A DNA stretch of 64,000 bases. It comes from an uncultured candidate division Zixibacteria bacterium. GTDB lineage: Bacteria > Zixibacteria > MSB-5A5 > UBA10806. The stretch is from the NCBI GenBank assembly GCA_963801605.1, contig CAWDFP010000006.1:192879-256878 (forward strand). Direction: 5' to 3'. Below, piece by piece: positions 686 through 11,512 of the stretch. Each line of letters opens with the position of its first letter. The first letter of the stretch is position 1. The position numbers were made by a program, and so were the translations under genes. The notes below the pieces were generated by a model that worked only from the letters and a program-made list of their open reading frames with translations, ran no database searches and was not told the origin of the DNA.

Positions 686-1231
686 ATGAAATTACGGATG
701 CTCCAATGCCTCGGTCTGATTTTAATTCTGACGACTCTGGCTACTGCGCAGGCGATCCAAACCAAAGTGGCGCCAGATTTCACCCTGCCGGATATCGATG
801 GCAAGAATATAACATTTTCCAAAAATTATGGTCAGGGGCCGATGTATATTTCGTTCTGGGCTACCTGGTGTAAACCCTGCATGGAAGAACTCAAAATCAT
901 TGAAAAGCTCTATGAAAAATATCAAGGTCAGGGTTTTCAAGTTTTCGCAATCAATGTAGAAGGTCCCAAGGCCGCAGCCAAAATTAAAAGTTTCGTTAAG
1001 ACTTACGGACTAACGTTTAAAGTGCTGCTTGATAATGACGGTGAGGTATTCCGCAGGACGTTCAAAGGCGCCAACATGCCATTTACCATCATGACCGATT
1101 CCAAAGGCAGGATCGTATTTTCGAGGGTGGGCTTCAAGCCAGGCGATGAGGTAGAGATCGAAAAACTGATCTCCGATAATATCCAACCAGCCGCTCCCGA
1201 TAGCGCCAAAAGCAACGAAGCGGAGAAATAG
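686..1231 (+). CDS. TlpA/ResA-like periplasmic thiol:disulfide oxidoreductase (thioredoxin fold)
   Basis: Signal peptide MKLRMLQCLGLILILTTLATAQA and a WCKPC active site in an FWATWCKPCMEELK context. Confidence 0.9.
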   Translation: MKLRMLQCLGLILILTTLATAQAIQTKVAPDFTLPDIDGKNITFSKNYGQGPMYISFWATWCKPCMEELKIIEKLYEKYQGQGFQVFAINVEGPKAAAKIKSFVKTYGLTFKVLLDNDGEVFRRTFKGANMPFTIMTDSKGRIVFSRVGFKPGDEVEIEKLISDNIQPAAPDSAKSNEAEK

Positions 1232-1232
1232 G

Positions 1233-1661
1233 ATGAAAAAGGAATTTTACCCCGCTGGCGCCATCGCCATTTTTATCGTTCTAACTATAATTTTTATGCT
1301 TCCTACGATTTCTCAGGCGCAAAATGACACCTGGTCAGTCTCAGCGTCGAATTGGATGCAATACTGGTACAATCAGCCTGAAGCCAATTGGCTGCGCAGC
1401 AGCCCGATAGATACACTCCCTCCGGATACTTTGAATTCGGTCAGGGATTCGCTGGATAATAGATTTAGCGTCGATTTCAATTTTGGCAACTTTTACGCCG
1501 GGGCATGGCTGCGTACTTACCAGCCAAATTTCAATGGGGATGCCAACGAGAAAATCACTCAGAGATATTTCGGATGGAAACAGGACGGAATAACTATTCA
1601 CGCCGGCAATTTCTATGAGACTTTCGACCGCGGTATGACGCTTAAACGCTTTTCTCGATGA
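1233..1661 (+). CDS. outer-membrane beta-barrel protein, N-terminal fragment (DUF6029-like)
   Basis: Signal peptide present. The reading continues in the +1 frame into 1666..2751 (..FDRGMTL / AFLDDAVNFDNNLDGIK), which implies a 1-nt indel near 1645. Confidence 0.7.
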   Translation: MKKEFYPAGAIAIFIVLTIIFMLPTISQAQNDTWSVSASNWMQYWYNQPEANWLRSSPIDTLPPDTLNSVRDSLDNRFSVDFNFGNFYAGAWLRTYQPNFNGDANEKITQRYFGWKQDGITIHAGNFYETFDRGMTLKRFSR

Positions 1662-1665
1662 CGCC

Positions 1666-2751
1666 GTGAATTTCGACAATAATCTCGATGGTATTAAAAT
1701 TTCGGGACTTTATGATCATTTCGATTTCGATGCGATTTCCGGACGGGCATTCAAATTCCAACAGGGATTTAACGAATTTACGCTTCAAAGAGATTTTACG
1801 ATCAGAGGCATCCGCGGAGCAATTAAGCCGTTTACCGGCTTCAAATATGGCGGCTCTTTTGTGATATTCAAGCAAAATAGCAGTACGCAATTCCGGCAAT
1901 CTGACAATATCCAGCTTTATTCCATAAACCACGAAATAAACAAGGGTCCTTTCAATTTTTACGGGGAATACGCCGTTAAAGAGGGAAACACGCCGGAAGA
2001 AGAAAAGACCGATGGCGATGGCACTTACCTTTCAGGCTCGTTCAGCCATCGGCTCTTTAGCGTCTACGGGGAATACAAGAATATCTTTCGTTTGCTATAT
2101 CCCGGCCCAACCGGAGCGTTCAACACGCCCCCGCCGGTGAGTCACCAGGGACGAAGCCTGTCCTCGCTGGACGGGACACCAGGCGAAAGAGCTTATCAGA
2201 TCGGCGGTTTGATTTCCCCAAACTTCGATCTTAATTTCGATCTGGCATATTCGGAATCGTATTCCCGCGGGCTTGCAAACAGGCTCTATCTATCGGAAAA
2301 ATACGCGGGCGCAAGATGGGCCCCGATCGAGAAGGTAGTGGTGAACGGTCACTGGGACCGAATTGACTATACTGAGGATGAGATCGAGACCTATTTTGAC
2401 GGTTACTATTATGTCAATCCCGTCCAAACAGTATCTTTCTCGGCTTACACTAAACGTTTCTGGCCAACCGGGAGAAAAAATTATCACGAGGATTATTTGA
2501 CCCTGGGCTATTCCCGAGGCAATATCGTTGAGGTAACAGTTGGGGGCTCGCTCTCGAATAGAGTTTTCAGCCCCGGGGAGAAAAATGATCCCAAGAAACT
2601 GGCTTCTATTGAGCTAACCTATCATTATCGATCCCATGAGTTATCGGTCTTTTACGGCGGCGAACGCGGGGGCCTGATCTGCTCATCCGGCGTCTGCAGC
2701 CTTCGACCGACTTTCAAGGGAACTCGGATAATTTTACTATCGCGCTTTTAA
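1666..2751 (+). CDS. outer-membrane beta-barrel protein, C-terminal fragment (DUF6029-like)
   Basis: Alternating aromatic beta-strand pattern, GGLICSSGVCSLRPTFKG near the end, and a terminal ..LLSRF typical of OMP C-termini. The frame is open from 1639. Confidence 0.7.
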   Translation: MNFDNNLDGIKISGLYDHFDFDAISGRAFKFQQGFNEFTLQRDFTIRGIRGAIKPFTGFKYGGSFVIFKQNSSTQFRQSDNIQLYSINHEINKGPFNFYGEYAVKEGNTPEEEKTDGDGTYLSGSFSHRLFSVYGEYKNIFRLLYPGPTGAFNTPPPVSHQGRSLSSLDGTPGERAYQIGGLISPNFDLNFDLAYSESYSRGLANRLYLSEKYAGARWAPIEKVVVNGHWDRIDYTEDEIETYFDGYYYVNPVQTVSFSAYTKRFWPTGRKNYHEDYLTLGYSRGNIVEVTVGGSLSNRVFSPGEKNDPKKLASIELTYHYRSHELSVFYGGERGGLICSSGVCSLRPTFKGTRIILLSRF

Positions 2752-2838
2752 CAGCTTAAATTAGGGTGGGGATAAGTTAAAGTTGTTCAAGCCAATAAGG
2801 GGAAATTAAAACAAATGATCTTTTTTACTAATAAACAT

Positions 2839-2867
2839 TTGAAAATAAAACGAAGTATTGTTATATT
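2839..2867 (+). promoter_or_regulatory. sigma70-like promoter for the gene starting at 2904
   Basis: TTGAAA (2839-2844), 17-nt spacer, TATATT (2862-2867). A GGAGG SD at 2893-2897 lies 6 nt before ATG 2904. Confidence 0.5.
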
Positions 2868-2903
2868 ATCATCAGAAATTTTTTAACCCAATGGAGGTTT
2901 TCG

Positions 2904-3959
2904 ATGGATCTTGCTAAAAAGTTGTTACTACTGATCGCAGTAAGTATCATTTGCCTGACGGGGATAGCCGCGGCTGCCGATAGAATGGTAGTTTGCGAGT
3001 ATGTCACCAACTGGGGCTGAGGTTATTGTCCCGCTGCCGATCTGGTCTTAGATCGGTTAATGACAAACGACAGTTCATTTTTGGCTATTATCAGGTATCA
3101 CTGGTATTATCCGTCCAGTGACGATCCTTGGTATATGTATAACATTACCGATAACATGGCCAGAAACAATTACTACAGCAACAATTATTCCCCCCATGCC
3201 TGGGCCGATGGCAACGTTGATCTGACATCCAACCATCCGGGCTGGACTAATTCGATCAACAACGAAAGCAACGTTGACGCTCCGTTGATTATGTCTTTGA
3301 GTGGAACGTACAACCGCGATTCGCTTGTAGGTTATCTGAACGTTAACATCATCGTGGAATCAAATCCCGCTCTTAATAATCTTAAATTGCGGGTGGCTAT
3401 GACGCAATCAGGGATTCGCCAATCATCTCCCAATGGAACCTTGAACCACCACCAGGTATTTCGTGATATGTTCCCAACTACAGGGGGCCTGGGGGTAACT
3501 CTTCCCGAAGGCGACACACTAAACTACACCGTCCGTTTCACAACTCCATCGCCGCTCATCCCGGATAGCCTGCAGTTAGTGGCTTTTGTCCAATCCGACC
3601 AAAACAGGCGGATTCTGCAGGCCGCCAAGATTAAGGTTCACGACCTGTTAAGGGTTGGAATTGAAGAAGGAGTAGAAGTTCCCCAGAGCTTCTCCCTTTC
3701 ACAAAATTACCCTAATCCGTTCAACGCTCAAACCCGCATCGAATTTTCGACCGAAGGCGGAAATACCGCTCTTGAGATATTCGATGTCACGGGAGCCAGG
3801 GTTGCCAGCCTGATGCAGGACAATCTCAGAGCCGGATCATACTCCGTCATCTGGGATGGCCGCAACCAATCGGGTAATCCGGTTTCATCAGGAACTTACT
3901 TCTATCGCCTTAAGGACGATAGCGGGGTCAAGACAATGAGGATGACACTGCTAAAGTAA
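2904..3959 (+). CDS. candidate selenoprotein: thioredoxin-fold (Omp28-like) T9SS cargo protein with in-frame TGA at 3018-3020
   Basis: ATG 2904 is in frame with track ORF 3060..3959. It opens a signal peptide MDLAKKLLLLIAVSIICLTGIAAAA, followed by EYVTNWG-TGA-GYCPAADLVLDRL (a UxxC motif). The C-terminus carries a T9SS sorting domain (SLSQNYPNPFNAQT...MRMTLLK). Confidence 0.65.
3026..3066 (+). promoter_or_regulatory. SECIS-like hairpin downstream of TGA 3018-3020
   Basis: Lower stem 3026-3030/3062-3066, internal loop, 7-bp upper stem 3037-3043/3050-3056, apical loop GGUCUU (3044-3049). Confidence 0.5.
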
Positions 3960-3982
3960 TTCTTGGCAATATCGAGTTTTTA

Positions 3983-4015
3983 CAGGGACGAATTTCGGTT
4001 CGTCCCTGTTTTTTT
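3983..4015 (+). terminator. intrinsic terminator
   Basis: Hairpin CAGGGACGAA-tttcgg-TTCGTCCCTG followed by a T7 run, immediately after the stop at 3959. Confidence 0.8.
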
Positions 4016-4065: not shown

Positions 4066-5382
4066 CTATTTTAGCAAAACCATTTTTATACTCTGAGACT
4101 GATCGCCCGCAACCAGCTTCGCATAATACACTCCGGAAGGGACATTGTTTGCATCCCATATTATCTGATGGGGGCCTGGTTGTTCAAGGTTCTTTGAAAG
4201 AATCGCGATTTTCTGGCCTAAGAGGTTGTAGATGGAAAGCTCAACCTGTTCAGCTTTCGGTAAATTAAGGCTTATAGTCGTTCGGGCATTAAATGGATTA
4301 GGGTAATTTTGCGATAGCGAAAAACGACTGGGGATCCCTGGCTCGTCCTTAATATCCGTCGGAGAGAATCTCAGAATAATCAGGGAATCCCGGTCGGCAA
4401 CATAAACATAGTTATCAAGAGCGTAAATCCCGGTAGCAATATATGGCGTATTATAGGCTGCCGCTAATTGAGGTGCGGCTAAGTCGGATATATCAACTAC
4501 CTGGATACCCTCAACACCAAGAGCGAGGTAAGCATAATTACCGGAGGCATATACGGCATGCGCCCAGGCGGGAGTAGGGTATGACGCTCTTAAGGTTGGA
4601 CCTGTTGGATAGGTAATATTAATAATTTGCATGCCTCCAACTTCATCGGCAATATAGGCATGGGAGCGATATACGAAAAGATTATTGGCATATCCGGGAG
4701 TATCGTAGAATCCAAGCAGCGTTGGGCTGGCGGAATTTTCGATAGAAGCAATTTCCAGGCCGAAATTGCCATCGGCAATATAGGCAAATGAGCCCAAAAC
4801 GAATACGCCCAGAGGAGATCCATAGGGATCCATTAGAGTTCCGGCAAGCGCGGGATTGGTCCGATTTGATATGTCAATTATTTGCAGTCCGGATGCTACA
4901 TCAGCCACATAGGCATAGGTCCCGGTGACAAATACGCCAGTCGCCACGTCGGGAGTATCATAACTTCCCACTAAAATGGGGCTGGCGGGATTGATGATAT
5001 TCACTATTTGCAGCCCCTGATCTCCGGTAGCCAGGTAAGCATAGCTGCCGGTGAGATATATCCCATTTCCCTGGCCAACAAAACTAATTTGACCGACAAA
5101 TTGCGGATGATTAGGCTGGGCAATATCAAAAATCGTAAGATCGCTGCTTGAAAGGCAGTAGGCTCGGTTTGCCATGACACGAACATCATTTATATTTGAG
5201 CATGCCACCGAACCGATATATTCTATCTCCTGCCCAAAAGCTGATGGTATAGGTCCAAAGATAACGATTAGAAAAACTAAATTAATAATCCATCGACTAA
5301 TATATTTTCCGTCGAGTGAAGTTTCAATTAATGCCGTATCGATGTGAATTATGTTTTTCATTATTAAAATGCCTCTCGTCAA
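4066..5382 (-). CDS. LVIVD-repeat beta-propeller protein with T9SS C-terminal sorting domain
   Basis: Repeated units of the type GSYAYLATGDQGLQIVNIINPASP. C-terminal SLSQNYPNPFNARTTI...IKMVLLK. The start is uncertain (5382 or ATG 5361). Confidence 0.85.
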   Translation of the reverse strand: MTRGILIMKNIIHIDTALIETSLDGKYISRWIINLVFLIVIFGPIPSAFGQEIEYIGSVACSNINDVRVMANRAYCLSSSDLTIFDIAQPNHPQFVGQISFVGQGNGIYLTGSYAYLATGDQGLQIVNIINPASPILVGSYDTPDVATGVFVTGTYAYVADVASGLQIIDISNRTNPALAGTLMDPYGSPLGVFVLGSFAYIADGNFGLEIASIENSASPTLLGFYDTPGYANNLFVYRSHAYIADEVGGMQIINITYPTGPTLRASYPTPAWAHAVYASGNYAYLALGVEGIQVVDISDLAAPQLAAAYNTPYIATGIYALDNYVYVADRDSLIILRFSPTDIKDEPGIPSRFSLSQNYPNPFNARTTISLNLPKAEQVELSIYNLLGQKIAILSKNLEQPGPHQIIWDANNVPSGVYYAKLVAGDQSQSIKMVLLK

Positions 5383-5499: not shown

Positions 5500-5931
5500 T
5501 TATTTTCCCAGCGATCTCTTGGTATGCGCGATGAGCCCGCCCGAGAACAATATTTTGGAAATAATCTCTGGATATGGGGAGAAATTTAGAATCTCCTTTT
5601 TCGCGGTAATTTCGCCCTTATCGAAATCGATTGAGATATTTTCGCCCGAAGCGATCTTATCAACAGCGTCGGCATTTTCGATTAGCGGCAGGCCCAAATT
5701 TATGGAGTTGCGATAAAATGTTCGTGAAAATGATACCGCGATGACGCATGCCACACCGGCAGAATCAAGCGTTTCCGAAAGCTCGACAATTGAGCCAAAA
5801 TGCTTACCCGCAATTATAATTGCACCCTTTTGAAGTTTAGGCAACTGCTCGGATTGGCTATCATCCGATAATAAAAGGCGCTCGTAGTTATAATCCAGCT
5901 TTATAGCCGGTCCAGAAATCTGTTTTTTCAT
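5500..5931 (-). CDS. aconitase-family dehydratase small subunit-like (LeuD/HacB-like, divergent)
   Basis: ..AVSFSRTFYRNSINLGLPLIE.. matches the swivel domain. Its ATG overlaps the large-subunit TGA (ATGA at 5928-5931). The usual GCGSSREHA-type segment reads GSIVELSETL. Confidence 0.7.
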   Translation of the reverse strand: MKKQISGPAIKLDYNYERLLLSDDSQSEQLPKLQKGAIIIAGKHFGSIVELSETLDSAGVACVIAVSFSRTFYRNSINLGLPLIENADAVDKIASGENISIDFDKGEITAKKEILNFSPYPEIISKILFSGGLIAHTKRSLGK

Positions 5932-8855: not shown

Positions 8856-10377
8856 ATTGGGTGATGATCTGTCTTTGACGGTTTAGCTCGCTTTCGTCGG
8901 CGACATACTGGGCCAGTTCTTTTTTGATCTTGGTGATTCTGGCAGTTGTCTCGTCAAGCGATTCGAGGCGGCTTTCAAGCTCCTGGGATGATTGACCTTC
9001 AAGAATGCCCTCATAGGTTTCGCGTTCCCGGGAAACCTGTTTTTCGAGATCATCAAATTGCCAGATGCTACGCCTGAGATCATTAAGCGACGATACCGAG
9101 TACCTGGCCAGAAGTTCGTTTAAAGCCGATGTCTGACCTTGAAGTTCAACACTCAGTGTGGTTAATTTTGATTCCAGCTTGGAAGAGTGGTCACCAAGAT
9201 ATTTACGATGCTGATTGCGGGAAACTGCAATACCCAGCCCAAATATAGTCATTGCAATGGAGGCCACAACGCCATAACCGGATATTGAATTCAGGAATGA
9301 CAAAAAGCCCATAAAATATGACAGCCCCATAACGACTGATCCCAACCCGCCCAGAATAGCGGAAACGATATAAACCTGGCCAATTTTGTAGGCCTCGAAC
9401 TCTTCCTTAGCTTCGGCAGCATCGGCCTCAAGCTCTCTGCTTTTGGGTTGAAGATAGCCCAGGCTTGATTCGATGTTATTTACGGTTTCAATATCTTTGG
9501 AATCGAAATTTTTCAGGCTAGCCTGCCGGTCACGAAGGATTTTGATTCTTTTAAGCGATTCCTGCGCCTCTTCCAGTTTCAGCTCTAGTTCCTGACGTTC
9601 GCGGGTAGCCACCACGAAACCATCCTCAAGCTCATTGGCTTTGAGACTTTGTTCGAGGTGTTCCTTTTTAGAAGCGAGGTCCTCGCGGATATTTTTATAA
9701 GCCATTTCGACTTGAATAAGATCAGAGCGTTTAGATTTCAGATTGGTTATTTCGCGGTTGAGCTTTTCGATATTATAATCAAGTTCCTTAGAGACCTTAT
9801 CGAGATGAGCCAACTCACCGCTGCCAGTTTCATTTCCGGCAATTTCGGCAATTCGCTTCTTAATTTTAGCCAAAACATTGGATGCGGCCTTTTCCTCTTT
9901 GCCGCCGGTAACAAGCGATTCCAGTTTATCTTTTATCGCCTCGAAAGAGCTTTCGATTTCATTTATTTCCCCCTGGGCAATACAAGCGGTGGCCCTAAAG
10001 ATTTCCTCGGATGGCATCCCCATCTGCTCGGATAGCCACTGCTCCACAAAATCAGGGGCCTCATTTTTGATCCCGGCAGCCTCGTTTTCGAGCTCGGTTT
10101 TGCCGGCCTTAAAATCCTTTAGAAGGCGATAAGATATGCCCTCGATATTAAGCACGGCTTCGAGAGCGGGCAGCTCGTTGGTTTCCCAGCGGGTTAAGCC
10201 AGCGATTTCCTTTCGTCCGGAGACAGGATCGAGGAACAAAGCCGCGGTGATAGCGCTGGCCAGAGTCGATTTTCCTGCCTCGTTTGGCCCTTTGATAAGA
10301 TTCAGGCCAGGAGTGAAATCGCAGGAAAAGTTTTCAAACTTACCAAAGTTATGAAGGAGTAGATGAGAAATTTGCAT
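8797..10377 (-). CDS. SbcC/YhaN-like ATPase, N-terminal fragment (Walker A, coiled coil, two TM helices)
   Basis: Walker A GPNEAGKST, long coiled coil, and a hydrophobic pair VYIVSAILGGLGSVVMGLSYFMGFL...GYGVVASIAMTIFGLGIAV. Confidence 0.8.
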   Translation of the reverse strand: MQISHLLLHNFGKFENFSCDFTPGLNLIKGPNEAGKSTLASAITAALFLDPVSGRKEIAGLTRWETNELPALEAVLNIEGISYRLLKDFKAGKTELENEAAGIKNEAPDFVEQWLSEQMGMPSEEIFRATACIAQGEINEIESSFEAIKDKLESLVTGGKEEKAASNVLAKIKKRIAEIAGNETGSGELAHLDKVSKELDYNIEKLNREITNLKSKRSDLIQVEMAYKNIREDLASKKEHLEQSLKANELEDGFVVATRERQELELKLEEAQESLKRIKILRDRQASLKNFDSKDIETVNNIESSLGYLQPKSRELEADAAEAKEEFEAYKIGQVYIVSAILGGLGSVVMGLSYFMGFLSFLNSISGYGVVASIAMTIFGLGIAVSRNQHRKYLGDHSSKLESKLTTLSVELQGQTSALNELLARYSVSSLNDLRRSIWQFDDLEKQVSRERETYEGILEGQSSQELESRLESLDETTARITKIKKELAQYVADESELNRQRQIITQFEDRVKDLERERGVLVPAT

Positions 10378-10378
10378 C

Positions 10379-11512
10379 TTACCAGACCTCCTTCCCTGTC
10401 AAAAGCGTGTAGCCGGTCTTAAGCGATTCCTCCAGCTCCAGCCGCTGGACGCCATCAGCCTTCTTTAATCTTTCCACCATTACCTTTAGATATTGGCCCA
10501 GTATCGTCTTTTCCTGGACTTTAATTTCGGAGATATCGGGCAGCACCCTGGTGCGATCTTCAAATGAGAGCTCCAGGAAATTACCCTTCATCTCCTCATG
10601 AATCGCTTTGATATTCAGACCGGATTCAAATAGCGCCAGGCCCTCAAGAGTAGCTCTCAAGATAACATCCGGCCCGGCGAGACTGTCTAACTTTTGCTTG
10701 AGTTCATCGACATTGACGACTTCTTCCATTGAAATCTGAGTTTCTTTCCAGATCAGACTGCCAATATGTTTAGGCTCAGTCGCAAGAAGATCGCCGTCAA
10801 GAGTGATCAGAAGGCAATTGCCGGAATTGGGCGAATCTGAGAAGATAATCTCTGGCGATCCGGAATAGGCAGCCTTAATTCCCACTGCGGTAAGATCGAG
10901 TCGCTCACTTTGGCCGCCAAGAGCGGCGTAGCTAAAGCCGCCTTTAGCCAGATCGTCGGGAGTGAAACTGTGATCTTTTCCGGCATCAGCCTTATCATGA
11001 ATCAGATTACCATAGATAACGGCAATATGATTGGCTGCTTTGCCAAATTTCCGAATCCTCAACGCGGGGTTTTCACGTCCTGAATCAGCCGTTACAGGGT
11101 GACCATAGACGGTAGCAGATAGATTAGGAAGTTCGATATATGGCTTATCCGAATCTGCCAATATATGAAGGTTTTCCGCTGGCGAAAGGATCTGCCACTC
11201 CTCCCAGAACGATCCTTTTTGATAAGGATCTCGCGCCCCCGGCAGGACCACAACGGGGATTTTCTCCAGCCGTCGAATCTGGGCCAGAAAGAAGTTGAGC
11301 AGGTTCTGAGAAATGTCGGGGTTGTCGAATGTATCGCCTGCCAGTATTAGAAGATCCGCCTTCTCCTCGATTGTCAGATCGATTAGCTTGACGAAGGCGT
11401 TTTTGATAGCCACGCGGAGCTTATCGCCCGGCACGGCCTGCCCCGATTTTGTCGGGTCCTGCCCGGAGAAAGTTGCCCCCAGGCGCACGTTAGAGGATTG
11501 TATTATTTTCAT
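10379..11512 (-). CDS. SbcD/Mre11/YhaO-like calcineurin-fold protein with degenerate metal-binding motifs
   Basis: GDTFD (motif II) is kept. Motif I reads QSSNVRLG instead of DxHxG, motif III reads PGARD instead of GNHD/E, and motif V reads ALGGQS instead of GHxH. Confidence 0.7.
   Translation of the reverse strand: MKIIQSSNVRLGATFSGQDPTKSGQAVPGDKLRVAIKNAFVKLIDLTIEEKADLLILAGDTFDNPDISQNLLNFFLAQIRRLEKIPVVVLPGARDPYQKGSFWEEWQILSPAENLHILADSDKPYIELPNLSATVYGHPVTADSGRENPALRIRKFGKAANHIAVIYGNLIHDKADAGKDHSFTPDDLAKGGFSYAALGGQSERLDLTAVGIKAAYSGSPEIIFSDSPNSGNCLLITLDGDLLATEPKHIGSLIWKETQISMEEVVNVDELKQKLDSLAGPDVILRATLEGLALFESGLNIKAIHEEMKGNFLELSFEDRTRVLPDISEIKVQEKTILGQYLKVMVERLKKADGVQRLELEESLKTGYTLLTGKEVW

Follow-up and report, generated by a model that had tools for sequence, protein, structure and literature searches.

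A probable selenocysteine codon in the gene for a predicted exported thioredoxin-like protein of a candidate division Zixibacteria bacterium

Is the TGA at positions 3018-3020 of a 64-kb stretch of DNA from an uncultured candidate division Zixibacteria bacterium a stop codon, or does it encode selenocysteine (Sec)? The stretch analyzed here (the window, 64,000 nucleotides) carries on its plus strand a frame of 351 codons (2904-3959) in which this TGA is the sole internal stop, and a mechanical list of open reading frames (ORFs) splits the frame into a piece of 38 residues (2904-3020) and a piece of 299 residues that begins at ATG 3060 (3060-3959). A preliminary description of the sequence had proposed that the frame from ATG 2904 is broken only by the TGA, and our translation of the 351 codons agrees. 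From the comparisons of sequences described below, we consider it very probable that the TGA is read as selenocysteine and that the frame is one gene, which would encode an exported thioredoxin-like selenoprotein of 351 residues.

One reading frame with a single internal TGA

The gene and its signals are the following.

2839-2867, plus strand: sigma-70-like promoter, TTGAAA-17-TATATT with an extended -10 (TG), a match to the consensus only, since promoters of the Fibrobacteres-Chlorobi-Bacteroidetes (FCB) group may differ
2893-2897, plus strand: Shine-Dalgarno sequence GGAGG, 6 nt 5' of ATG 2904
2904-2978, plus strand: predicted Sec-pathway signal peptide, MDLAKK-LLLLIAVSIICLTGI-AAAA, with n, h and c regions read by eye and an approximate cleavage site
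2904-3959, plus strand: complete coding sequence, 351 residues with probable Sec39, final stop TAA 3957-3959, from translation and homolog alignments
3018-3020, plus strand: UGA as probable selenocysteine, residue 39, the first residue of U-G-Y-C (motif 3018-3029), aligned with the first Cys of CxxC
3982-4009, plus strand: intrinsic terminator-like hairpin of 12 bp followed by a T-run, after the stop codon

The promoter, the GGAGG, ATG 2904 and the signal peptide had all been proposed in the preliminary description, and we located each of them in the sequence. The first 25 residues (MDLAKK, LLLLIAVSIICLTGI and AAAA) form, as judged by eye, a classical signal peptide that is present only if translation starts at 2904. 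The product of Met 3060 is without a signal peptide, as had been noted, and the frame from 2904 restores one; reading the sequence 5' of ATG 3060, we found no Shine-Dalgarno sequence. The peptide around the stop is VVCEYVTNWG-[TGA]-GYCPAADLVLDRL.

The TGA occupies a cysteine column in relatives

As a homology query we used the read-through product with C in place of the stop, and a collection of 5.8 billion proteins returned 31 relatives. Six of these are full length (346-354 aa) and contain a CxxC motif whose first Cys falls exactly at the TGA column, such that TNWG-U-GYC of the window aligns with TNTG-C-PPC of the homologs (e.g., TNTG-C-PPC-YAADIALDRV). The other relatives (25 of 31) are N-terminally truncated, most of them 290-304 aa long and starting just past the motif. 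Wherever the DNA or the ORF layout of a truncated entry was readable, it showed an upstream ORF of 38 codons that ends in TGA; the contig of P0002, for example, has by its ORF positions a 38-codon ORF and then a 299-codon ORF that begins 156 nt past the first start. Judged from these layouts, the database entries of ~299 aa are gene-caller truncations at an in-frame TGA. The preliminary description had held that homologs beginning at the equivalent of Met 3060, with no conserved CxxC upstream, would speak against recoding, but no homolog truly starts there.

We also read the column from the DNA of relatives at independent loci in metagenomes and metagenome-assembled genomes (MAGs). The scans of genomes and metagenomes were dominated by PNPFNAxTxI, a generic pattern of the C-terminal sorting domain (CTD) of the type IX secretion system (T9SS), and only ~14 of 160 loci were true Omp28-like relatives. 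In this DNA set, the column holds TGA in 18 genes, namely the window gene and genes at L161, L163, L164, L165, L001, L002 (two), L003, L004 (two), L005 (three), L052, L064, L082 and L083. It holds TGT or TGC in seven genes (L161, L164, L004, L006, L081, L084 and L046) and TAA or TAG in none. The proposal that the TGA takes the position of the first Cys in a CxxC-type motif is thus borne out both by the six full-length homologs and by the DNA column, in which we found Cys codons or TGA throughout and never another stop.

The TGA genes encode proteins with 30-88% identity to the window protein, and the labels of their MAGs include Zixibacteria, Neomarinimicrobiota, 'Ignavibacteria' and 'Lentisphaeria'. 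Upstream of the TGA, all of them retain the signal peptide and the beta-1 strand motif R-x-V-x-x-E-x-x-T, and by alignment all Sec and Cys homologs share an equivalent N-terminus. When the 38 codons ahead of the TGA are compared between the window and L161, 12 differences are synonymous and 7 nonsynonymous. This synonymous excess, together with the conserved N-terminus, argues that the part upstream of the TGA is under protein-level selection. We therefore have an in-frame TGA paired with Cys in homologs and conserved coding sequence on both sides of it; the TGA/Cys column is the standard signature by which bacterial selenoprotein families are defined (PMC1088965, PMC2398784).

Sec and Cys paralogs lie side by side in L161 (503-1567 vs. 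1836-2891), in L164 (8447-9502 vs. 9761-10897) and on the JGI (Joint Genome Institute) contig of P0002/P0003. The motif in these pairs is CPPC for the Cys copy and U(G/P)(Y/S/P)C for the Sec copy; only a Sec copy is present in the window. Two copies of the TGA type are found on CP070742.1. Tandem Sec-type copies that end early after read-through were found in L002 (4220-4456, 78 aa) and L005 (2935-3288, 117 aa), and these may be decaying duplicates or assembly errors. At L052 (2035-4638) and L064 (655-3285), with Neomarinimicrobiota and 'Lentisphaeria' labels, the genes encode fusion proteins of 867-876 aa, in which a Sec-type Omp28-like domain is followed by ~500 residues of FG-GAP/VCBS-like repeats and a CTD.

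A hairpin downstream from the TGA is conserved in Sec-type genes

The preliminary description had proposed a bipartite hairpin just after the TGA, resembling the selenocysteine insertion sequence (SECIS) of Escherichia coli fdhF. Two helices form in the window.

3036-3044/3049-3057, plus strand: SECIS-like upper stem-loop of nine pairs (seven Watson-Crick and two flanking G-U), with GGUC at 3044-3047
3026-3030/3062-3066, plus strand: lower (outer) stem in the window fold, not conserved in relatives

The fold and its upper stem-loop stand, with compensatory changes among relatives and no counterpart in Cys paralogs. The lower stem did not survive the comparison: relatives pair differently there or not at all, and we dropped it as part of a functional element. 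Compared to dinucleotide shuffles, a 58-nt fold (-17.8 kcal/mol) has z = -2.26 and a 49-nt fold (-16.4 kcal/mol) has z = -2.81; compared to synonymous-codon shuffles that keep the peptide, z = -2.59, and equally good folds arose in 4 of 300.

The window's hairpin is common to 10 TGA genes, among which GGUC is invariant and 95.6% of cells are paired in the proposed register, compared to 14%-38% with the register slid. Compensatory changes occur at two pairs, 21-38 (U-A/C-G) and 26-33 (U-A/A-U), and in both L002 and L082, where CUG (Leu) has become CAG (Gln), the Leu codon on the partner side has changed to match, from UUA to CUU. In the remaining eight TGA genes the hairpin is of another kind, has 6-7 bp and lies ~10 nt further downstream; its loop is AGUU, GGUU, GUGU, GGU or AGGAA, with G always among the first two bases. 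Counted by register, 8-9 of 9 pairs form in the window's register in the 10 Sec genes and 6-7 of 7 in the downstream register in six Sec genes; in L052 and L064, which have a hairpin type that differs from that of the window (GGU or AGGAA loops), the pairing is one position off the downstream register.

In Cys genes, no more than 4 of the 9 positions form Watson-Crick pairs. Against synonymous-codon shuffles, z was below 0 for each of the 18 Sec genes (mean -1.56) and averaged +0.12 for six Cys genes. The cleanest control is the tandem Cys paralog in L161, which has AADLALDRL where the Sec gene has AADLVLDRL and which encodes it with codons (GAU UUA GCA UUG GAU AGG) that make no stem; this pair indicates that the hairpin is tied to the TGA, and not to the peptide.

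The program bSECISearch requires that the loop lie 16-37 nt away from the UGA and that one of its first two bases be G. In the genes examined here, a stem-loop with a small G-containing apical loop follows the UGA at a distance of 23-34 nt, and a stable stem-loop near the UGA with a G in the apical loop is a general feature of bacterial Sec genes (PMC1088965).

For comparison, we retrieved the E. coli fdhF SECIS sequence (at 100% identity, from a gene annotated as selenocysteine-containing) and folded it. Both hairpins lie inside the coding sequence directly downstream from the UGA, and both have GGUC in the apical loop. The likeness of the GGUC loop that had been proposed therefore holds; the offset had been put at about 4 nt and is 5 nt, the GGUC being nt 22-25 from the U of the UGA in fdhF and nt 27-30 in the window. 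The upper stem of the window hairpin, with nine pairs, is longer than that of fdhF, and its loop reads GGUCUU, or GUCU when it is closed by the G-U pair. An SECIS of the fdhF type, as it is generally described, has a bulged U and a minimal upper helix that starts 11 nt from the UGA; in our fold, the window helix starts 15 nt past the UGA and has no evident equivalent of the bulged U.

The encoded protein resembles an exported thioredoxin-fold oxidoreductase

Domains were assigned to the read-through product as follows.

2982-3278, plus strand: predicted thioredoxin-fold domain with UGYC at the start of helix 1, from the AlphaFold2 (AF2) model of P0003 and Foldseek matches to 5y1a and 2axo
3285-3641, plus strand: predicted beta-sandwich (Omp28-type) middle domain, from Pfam Omp28, model strands 128-244 and Foldseek match to 2r2c
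3708-3956, plus strand: T9SS type A C-terminal sorting domain, from TIGR04183 and Por_Secre_tail
Residues 86-246: Pfam Omp28 (PF11551), 42.7 bits, above the gathering threshold of 34.9
Residues 269-344: Pfam Por_Secre_tail (PF18962), 27.1 bits, above the threshold of 27; FlgD_ig also matches
Residues 269-347: TIGR04183, 37.5 bits, above the cutoff of 23

As a stand-in for the window protein we used the AF2 model of the Cys homolog P0003 (mean predicted local distance difference test score [pLDDT] 79). P0003 has 67% identity to the window protein, equals it in length and aligns with its N-terminus without gaps. In the model, a thioredoxin fold comes first (strand 29-35, helix 40-52 from the CxxC onward, strand 60-66, helix 81-90, strand 98-101 and helix 111-122), then a beta-sandwich (128-244), a disordered linker and a beta-sandwich CTD (277-349). 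By this model, the window protein would have the beta-alpha-beta core with a CxxC-type motif at the N-terminus of helix 1 that is typical of thioredoxin-fold oxidoreductases. The protein also combines a C-terminal sorting domain with an N-terminal signal peptide (from start 2904 only), the features of T9SS type A cargo.

The best Foldseek match in the Protein Data Bank (PDB) was Porphyromonas gingivalis HBP35 (5y1a; E = 3.2e-13, template modeling [TM] scores 0.54/0.59, 355 columns). A protein of the DUF1223 family was second (2axo; E = 8e-9, TM 0.65 on the target), and the Omp28 domain 2r2c was found lower down. HBP35 and the window protein have the same architecture, a thioredoxin domain bearing a CxxC-type motif, then a beta-sandwich and finally a T9SS CTD, but they are 12% identical in the structural alignment, HBP35 has Cys where the window protein has Sec, and the hemin-binding role of HBP35 is not implied for the window protein. 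A sequence-profile search of the PDB gave matches to the CTD only (FlgD-like, PorU) and detected no sequence homology to HBP35. HBP35 is described as having thioredoxin activity and as cargo of the T9SS (Por) (PMC2907840, PMC3120885). As a working model based on the fold, we suggest that the gene encodes an HBP35-like thiol oxidoreductase, secreted or located at the surface, whose attacking residue is Sec instead of Cys (U39-G-Y-C42).

Two other families are close by. The window protein passes the Pfam gathering threshold for Omp28 but has 37.9 bits against the cutoff of 150 for NCBIfam NF033782, the outer membrane lipoprotein model of Omp28, and unlike those lipoproteins it has no lipobox, a T9SS CTD instead of lipidation, and Sec for Cys. 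The thioredoxin-like fold is shared with DUF1223 (PF06764; 2axo), although the Pfam score (15.9 vs. 30.7 bits) is far below threshold and DUF1223 proteins, unlike the window protein, have neither CTD nor Sec.

The window protein belongs to a clade apart from the curated Omp28-related selenoproteins

Among NCBIfam models, NF045500 ('Omp28-related selenoprotein') matches the window protein best (E = 3e-11; residues 21-251 against profile positions 33-274). This group was predicted in 2008 by Zhang and Gladyshev as GOS_C, a thioredoxin-fold selenoprotein with a UxxC motif, represented by 74 Sec and 312 Cys sequences and accompanied by hairpins resembling a SECIS (PMC2398784), and is listed as 'Hypothetical protein GOS_C', motif UxxC, in a 2026 review (PMC13188914). 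The UxxC motif in a thioredoxin-like fold that characterizes it is found here as U39-G-Y-C42, the fold being taken from the homolog model. The likeness extends to the Omp28-like domain, the many Cys homologs and the SECIS-like hairpin after the UGA.

Five Sec-type relatives of the window protein are also below the NF045500 cutoff, four with 33-61 bits and L064 with no match at E <= 1e-4. Because the window protein and these five relatives all fall below it, we conclude from the sequences that the window protein is a divergent member of a separate, uncurated, CTD-bearing clade within the wider Omp28 superfamily. The window clade comes from Zixibacteria-like sediment and groundwater MAGs, whereas GOS_C came from surface-ocean reads. 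The window clade carries a T9SS sorting domain.

The idea of an Omp28-related UxxC selenoprotein is therefore largely known already, so the identification is sound but not surprising. Searches of the literature on Omp28 or type IX secretion with selenoproteins yielded no description of a T9SS-exported selenoprotein, and those on Zixibacteria and selenocysteine yielded no statement on a Sec trait in the phylum.

Weighing selenocysteine against other explanations of the TGA

Several results weigh against the reading of the TGA as Sec in a functional selenoprotein. We found no selA, selB, selD or tRNA-Sec in the 64-kb window, which is part of a 1.92-Mb contig, or in ~0.95 Mb of related loci. With ARAGORN, the window yielded no tRNA at all and none of the related loci yielded a tRNA-Sec, and six-frame motif scans of the window and 166 loci for SelA (SGDKLLGGPQ), SelD (G-x-G-C/U-G-C-K) and SelB/EF-type GHVDHGK gave nothing real. 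The score of the window protein against NF045500 is 43.3 bits, compared to the curated cutoff of 200, and thus the protein falls outside the family as curated. The peptide itself favors part of the stem, since GAUC (Asp plus a C-initial codon) is self-complementary and occurs twice, and the covariation in the hairpin is confined to two pairs. At gathering thresholds no Rfam family matched in the window, and a search of 2990-3110 at E <= 10 gave nothing but chance matches to snoRNAs and riboswitches; this last result is uninformative because, to our knowledge, Rfam contains no general bacterial SECIS model. The function that we assign, moreover, is one suggested by the fold and the neighboring genes.

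Could the UGA be read through, but not as Sec? Cys might be inserted by a tRNASec-like tRNACys and a SelB-like system, or a near-cognate tRNA might suppress the stop, aided by the hairpin. The comparative data point to recoding at a Cys position with a conserved hairpin and do not by themselves say which amino acid is inserted, and Mukai and colleagues reportedly proposed in 2017 that some bacteria recode UGA to Cys through Sec-like tRNAs. Against this, a TGA/Cys column combined with an apical loop that contains G is the standard hallmark of Sec genes (PMC1088965, PMC2398784), and related Omp28-like proteins are curated as selenoproteins. Furthermore, recoding just to obtain Cys would have no obvious benefit, because the Cys paralogs simply use TGT or TGC. 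We regard read-through with another amino acid as very unlikely.

We give still less credence to a true stop, which would make the locus a pseudogene or else divide it into a leader ORF of 38 codons and an independent protein of 299 residues from Met 3060. Gene callers do produce exactly this split in the deposited genome and in relatives, and the frameshift in the adjacent DUF6029 gene (described below) indicates that damaged genes or assembly errors exist at the locus. However, in 18 genes of diverged lineages the stop is without exception TGA and never lies outside the catalytic Cys column, and the protein is conserved on both sides of it. The product of Met 3060 would be deprived of the signal peptide, strand 1 and the redox motif and yet would keep a CTD that requires prior export, and no Shine-Dalgarno sequence is found ahead of it.

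The same frameshift hints that the consensus sequence may be imperfect, such that the true codon might be TGT or TGC. The TGA, however, recurs in independently assembled contigs of other samples, some encoding proteins with 76%-88% identity; the lesion in the neighbor is an indel and not a substitution; and an error would leave the SECIS hairpin without explanation. We attach next to no weight to a sequencing or assembly error.

A genome-wide reassignment of TGA (code 4 or 25, Trp or Gly), for which nothing speaks beyond the in-frame TGA itself, is negligible and refuted by stop usage, since 11 of the 38 window ORFs of at least 200 aa end in TGA (those at 5928, 7524 and 18848 end real genes, the first two encoding aconitase and HIT), a scan of the window for other TGA-bridged ORFs gave no second convincing candidate (the few C/U contexts were adjacent genes or noncoding frames), and the aligned residue is Cys, not Trp or Gly. 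In this respect our results agree with the preliminary description, which had taken TGA as an ordinary stop elsewhere in the window and the event as site-specific recoding and not a changed code.

Proposed decoding, export and function

We infer selenium insertion, secretion, the redox partners and the substrate from the comparisons above and from the genes nearby. UGA 3018-3020 would be recoded to Sec cotranslationally, with the hairpin 3036-3057 and its GGUC loop serving as a bacterial SECIS. By analogy with the paradigm of E. coli fdhF, the hairpin may recruit SelB-GTP-Sec-tRNASec while the UGA is in the A site. The signal peptide would direct export through the Sec translocon, the chain is predicted to fold into a thioredoxin domain with U39-G-Y-C42 at the N-terminus of helix 1 and then an Omp28-type beta-sandwich, and the type A CTD would take the protein across the outer membrane by the T9SS. 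In the mature protein, a selenol would stand in place of the attacking thiol of a CxxC oxidoreductase, and this replacement makes extracytoplasmic or surface thiol-disulfide (or chalcogen) redox chemistry likely. The predicted partners are probably the products of the co-transcribed genes for a TlpA-like redoxin and a DUF6029 barrel.

If our reading is correct, this gene places selenocysteine in a T9SS cargo protein and links it to an uncharacterized redoxin/barrel module in Zixibacteria-like bacteria. In public protein sets, at least two dozen relatives, like the deposited gene call itself, would be cut at the Sec codon, and the truncated entries resemble unsecretable T9SS cargo because the signal peptide and active site are lost. 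Restoring these entries would add a clade to the Omp28-related selenoproteins beyond the curated NF045500 model. The natural Sec/Cys paralog pairs, with near-identical peptides with and without the hairpin, would provide a clean data set for refining bacterial SECIS models. No principle of Sec decoding is changed.

The gene lies in a conserved module of putative redox genes

Upstream of the Omp28-like gene are two genes on the same strand.

686-1231, plus strand: TlpA/ResA-like periplasmic thiol:disulfide oxidoreductase with WCKPC and a signal peptide, the first gene of the module
1233-2751, plus strand: DUF6029 outer-membrane beta-barrel gene, frameshifted (1233-1661 and 1666-2751), with Pfam DUF6029 on both pieces

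The product of 686-1231 matches the NCBIfam models ResA (104 bits) and TlpA (62 bits), both below their cutoffs. A sub-threshold match of 48 bits links it to NF041054, 'ResA-like WAxxUGC motif-containing protein', a selenoprotein family; the motif here is all-Cys, WATWCKPC. In the DUF6029 gene, the frameshift junction is near 1640-1665, where relatives are intact (471-505 aa) and read ...FDRGMTLNAFLDDAV...; the deposited genome has the same 361-aa DUF6029 call (P0033). The frameshift may be an assembly indel or a real lesion of a pseudogene.

The AF2 model of a DUF6029 homolog (81% identical, pLDDT 80.5) is a barrel of ~24 strands without a plug domain (26 strand elements by DSSP, two of them very short), and Foldseek relates it to usher pores, TonB-dependent receptors and AlgE. 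Close to the C-terminus the family carries an invariant C-S-S-G-x-C (window ~2680-2751, GGLICSSGVCSLRPTF; C483 and C488 in P0034), and its last residue is Phe. A conserved Cys pair in a barrel that is encoded between two thiol-redox genes is suggestive.

The order of genes, a TlpA/ResA-like redoxin, DUF6029 and one to three Omp28-like genes (Sec and/or Cys, often tandem paralogs), occupies 686-3959 in the window. The module is complete in the window, L001, L002, L004, L005, L081, L163, L164 and L165, partial in L082, L161 and L166, and rearranged in L046 (a Bacteroidota MAG). The TlpA-like gene is upstream of the Omp28-like gene in eight other loci, and the named relatives, among DUF6029 as well as Omp28-like sequences, are Zixibacteria. 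By these relatives, the source would probably be a Zixibacteria-like member of the FCB group.

We considered whether the three kinds of protein might together form a thiol/selenol relay that spans the outer membrane and would be the sulfur/selenium analog of MtrA-MtrB-MtrC. In such a relay, reducing equivalents would pass from the periplasmic TlpA-like reductase, through or at the DUF6029 barrel, to the surface selenoprotein, the one to three Omp28-like proteins (Sec or Cys) being delivered to the surface by the T9SS. What we observed of this scheme is limited to genes that occur together, their folds and the conserved cysteines, and we offer the scheme as speculation that is unlikely to hold as drawn.

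The window contains eight further CTD-bearing genes, all on the minus strand, which end at 4069, 27399, 29668, 32054, 34235, 36412, 39034 and 57023. T9SS-type sorting therefore appears to be heavily used by this organism. Among the CTD genes are one for an LVIVD-repeat protein (4066-5382) and five ORFs of ~700 aa in a run between 27396 and 38493.

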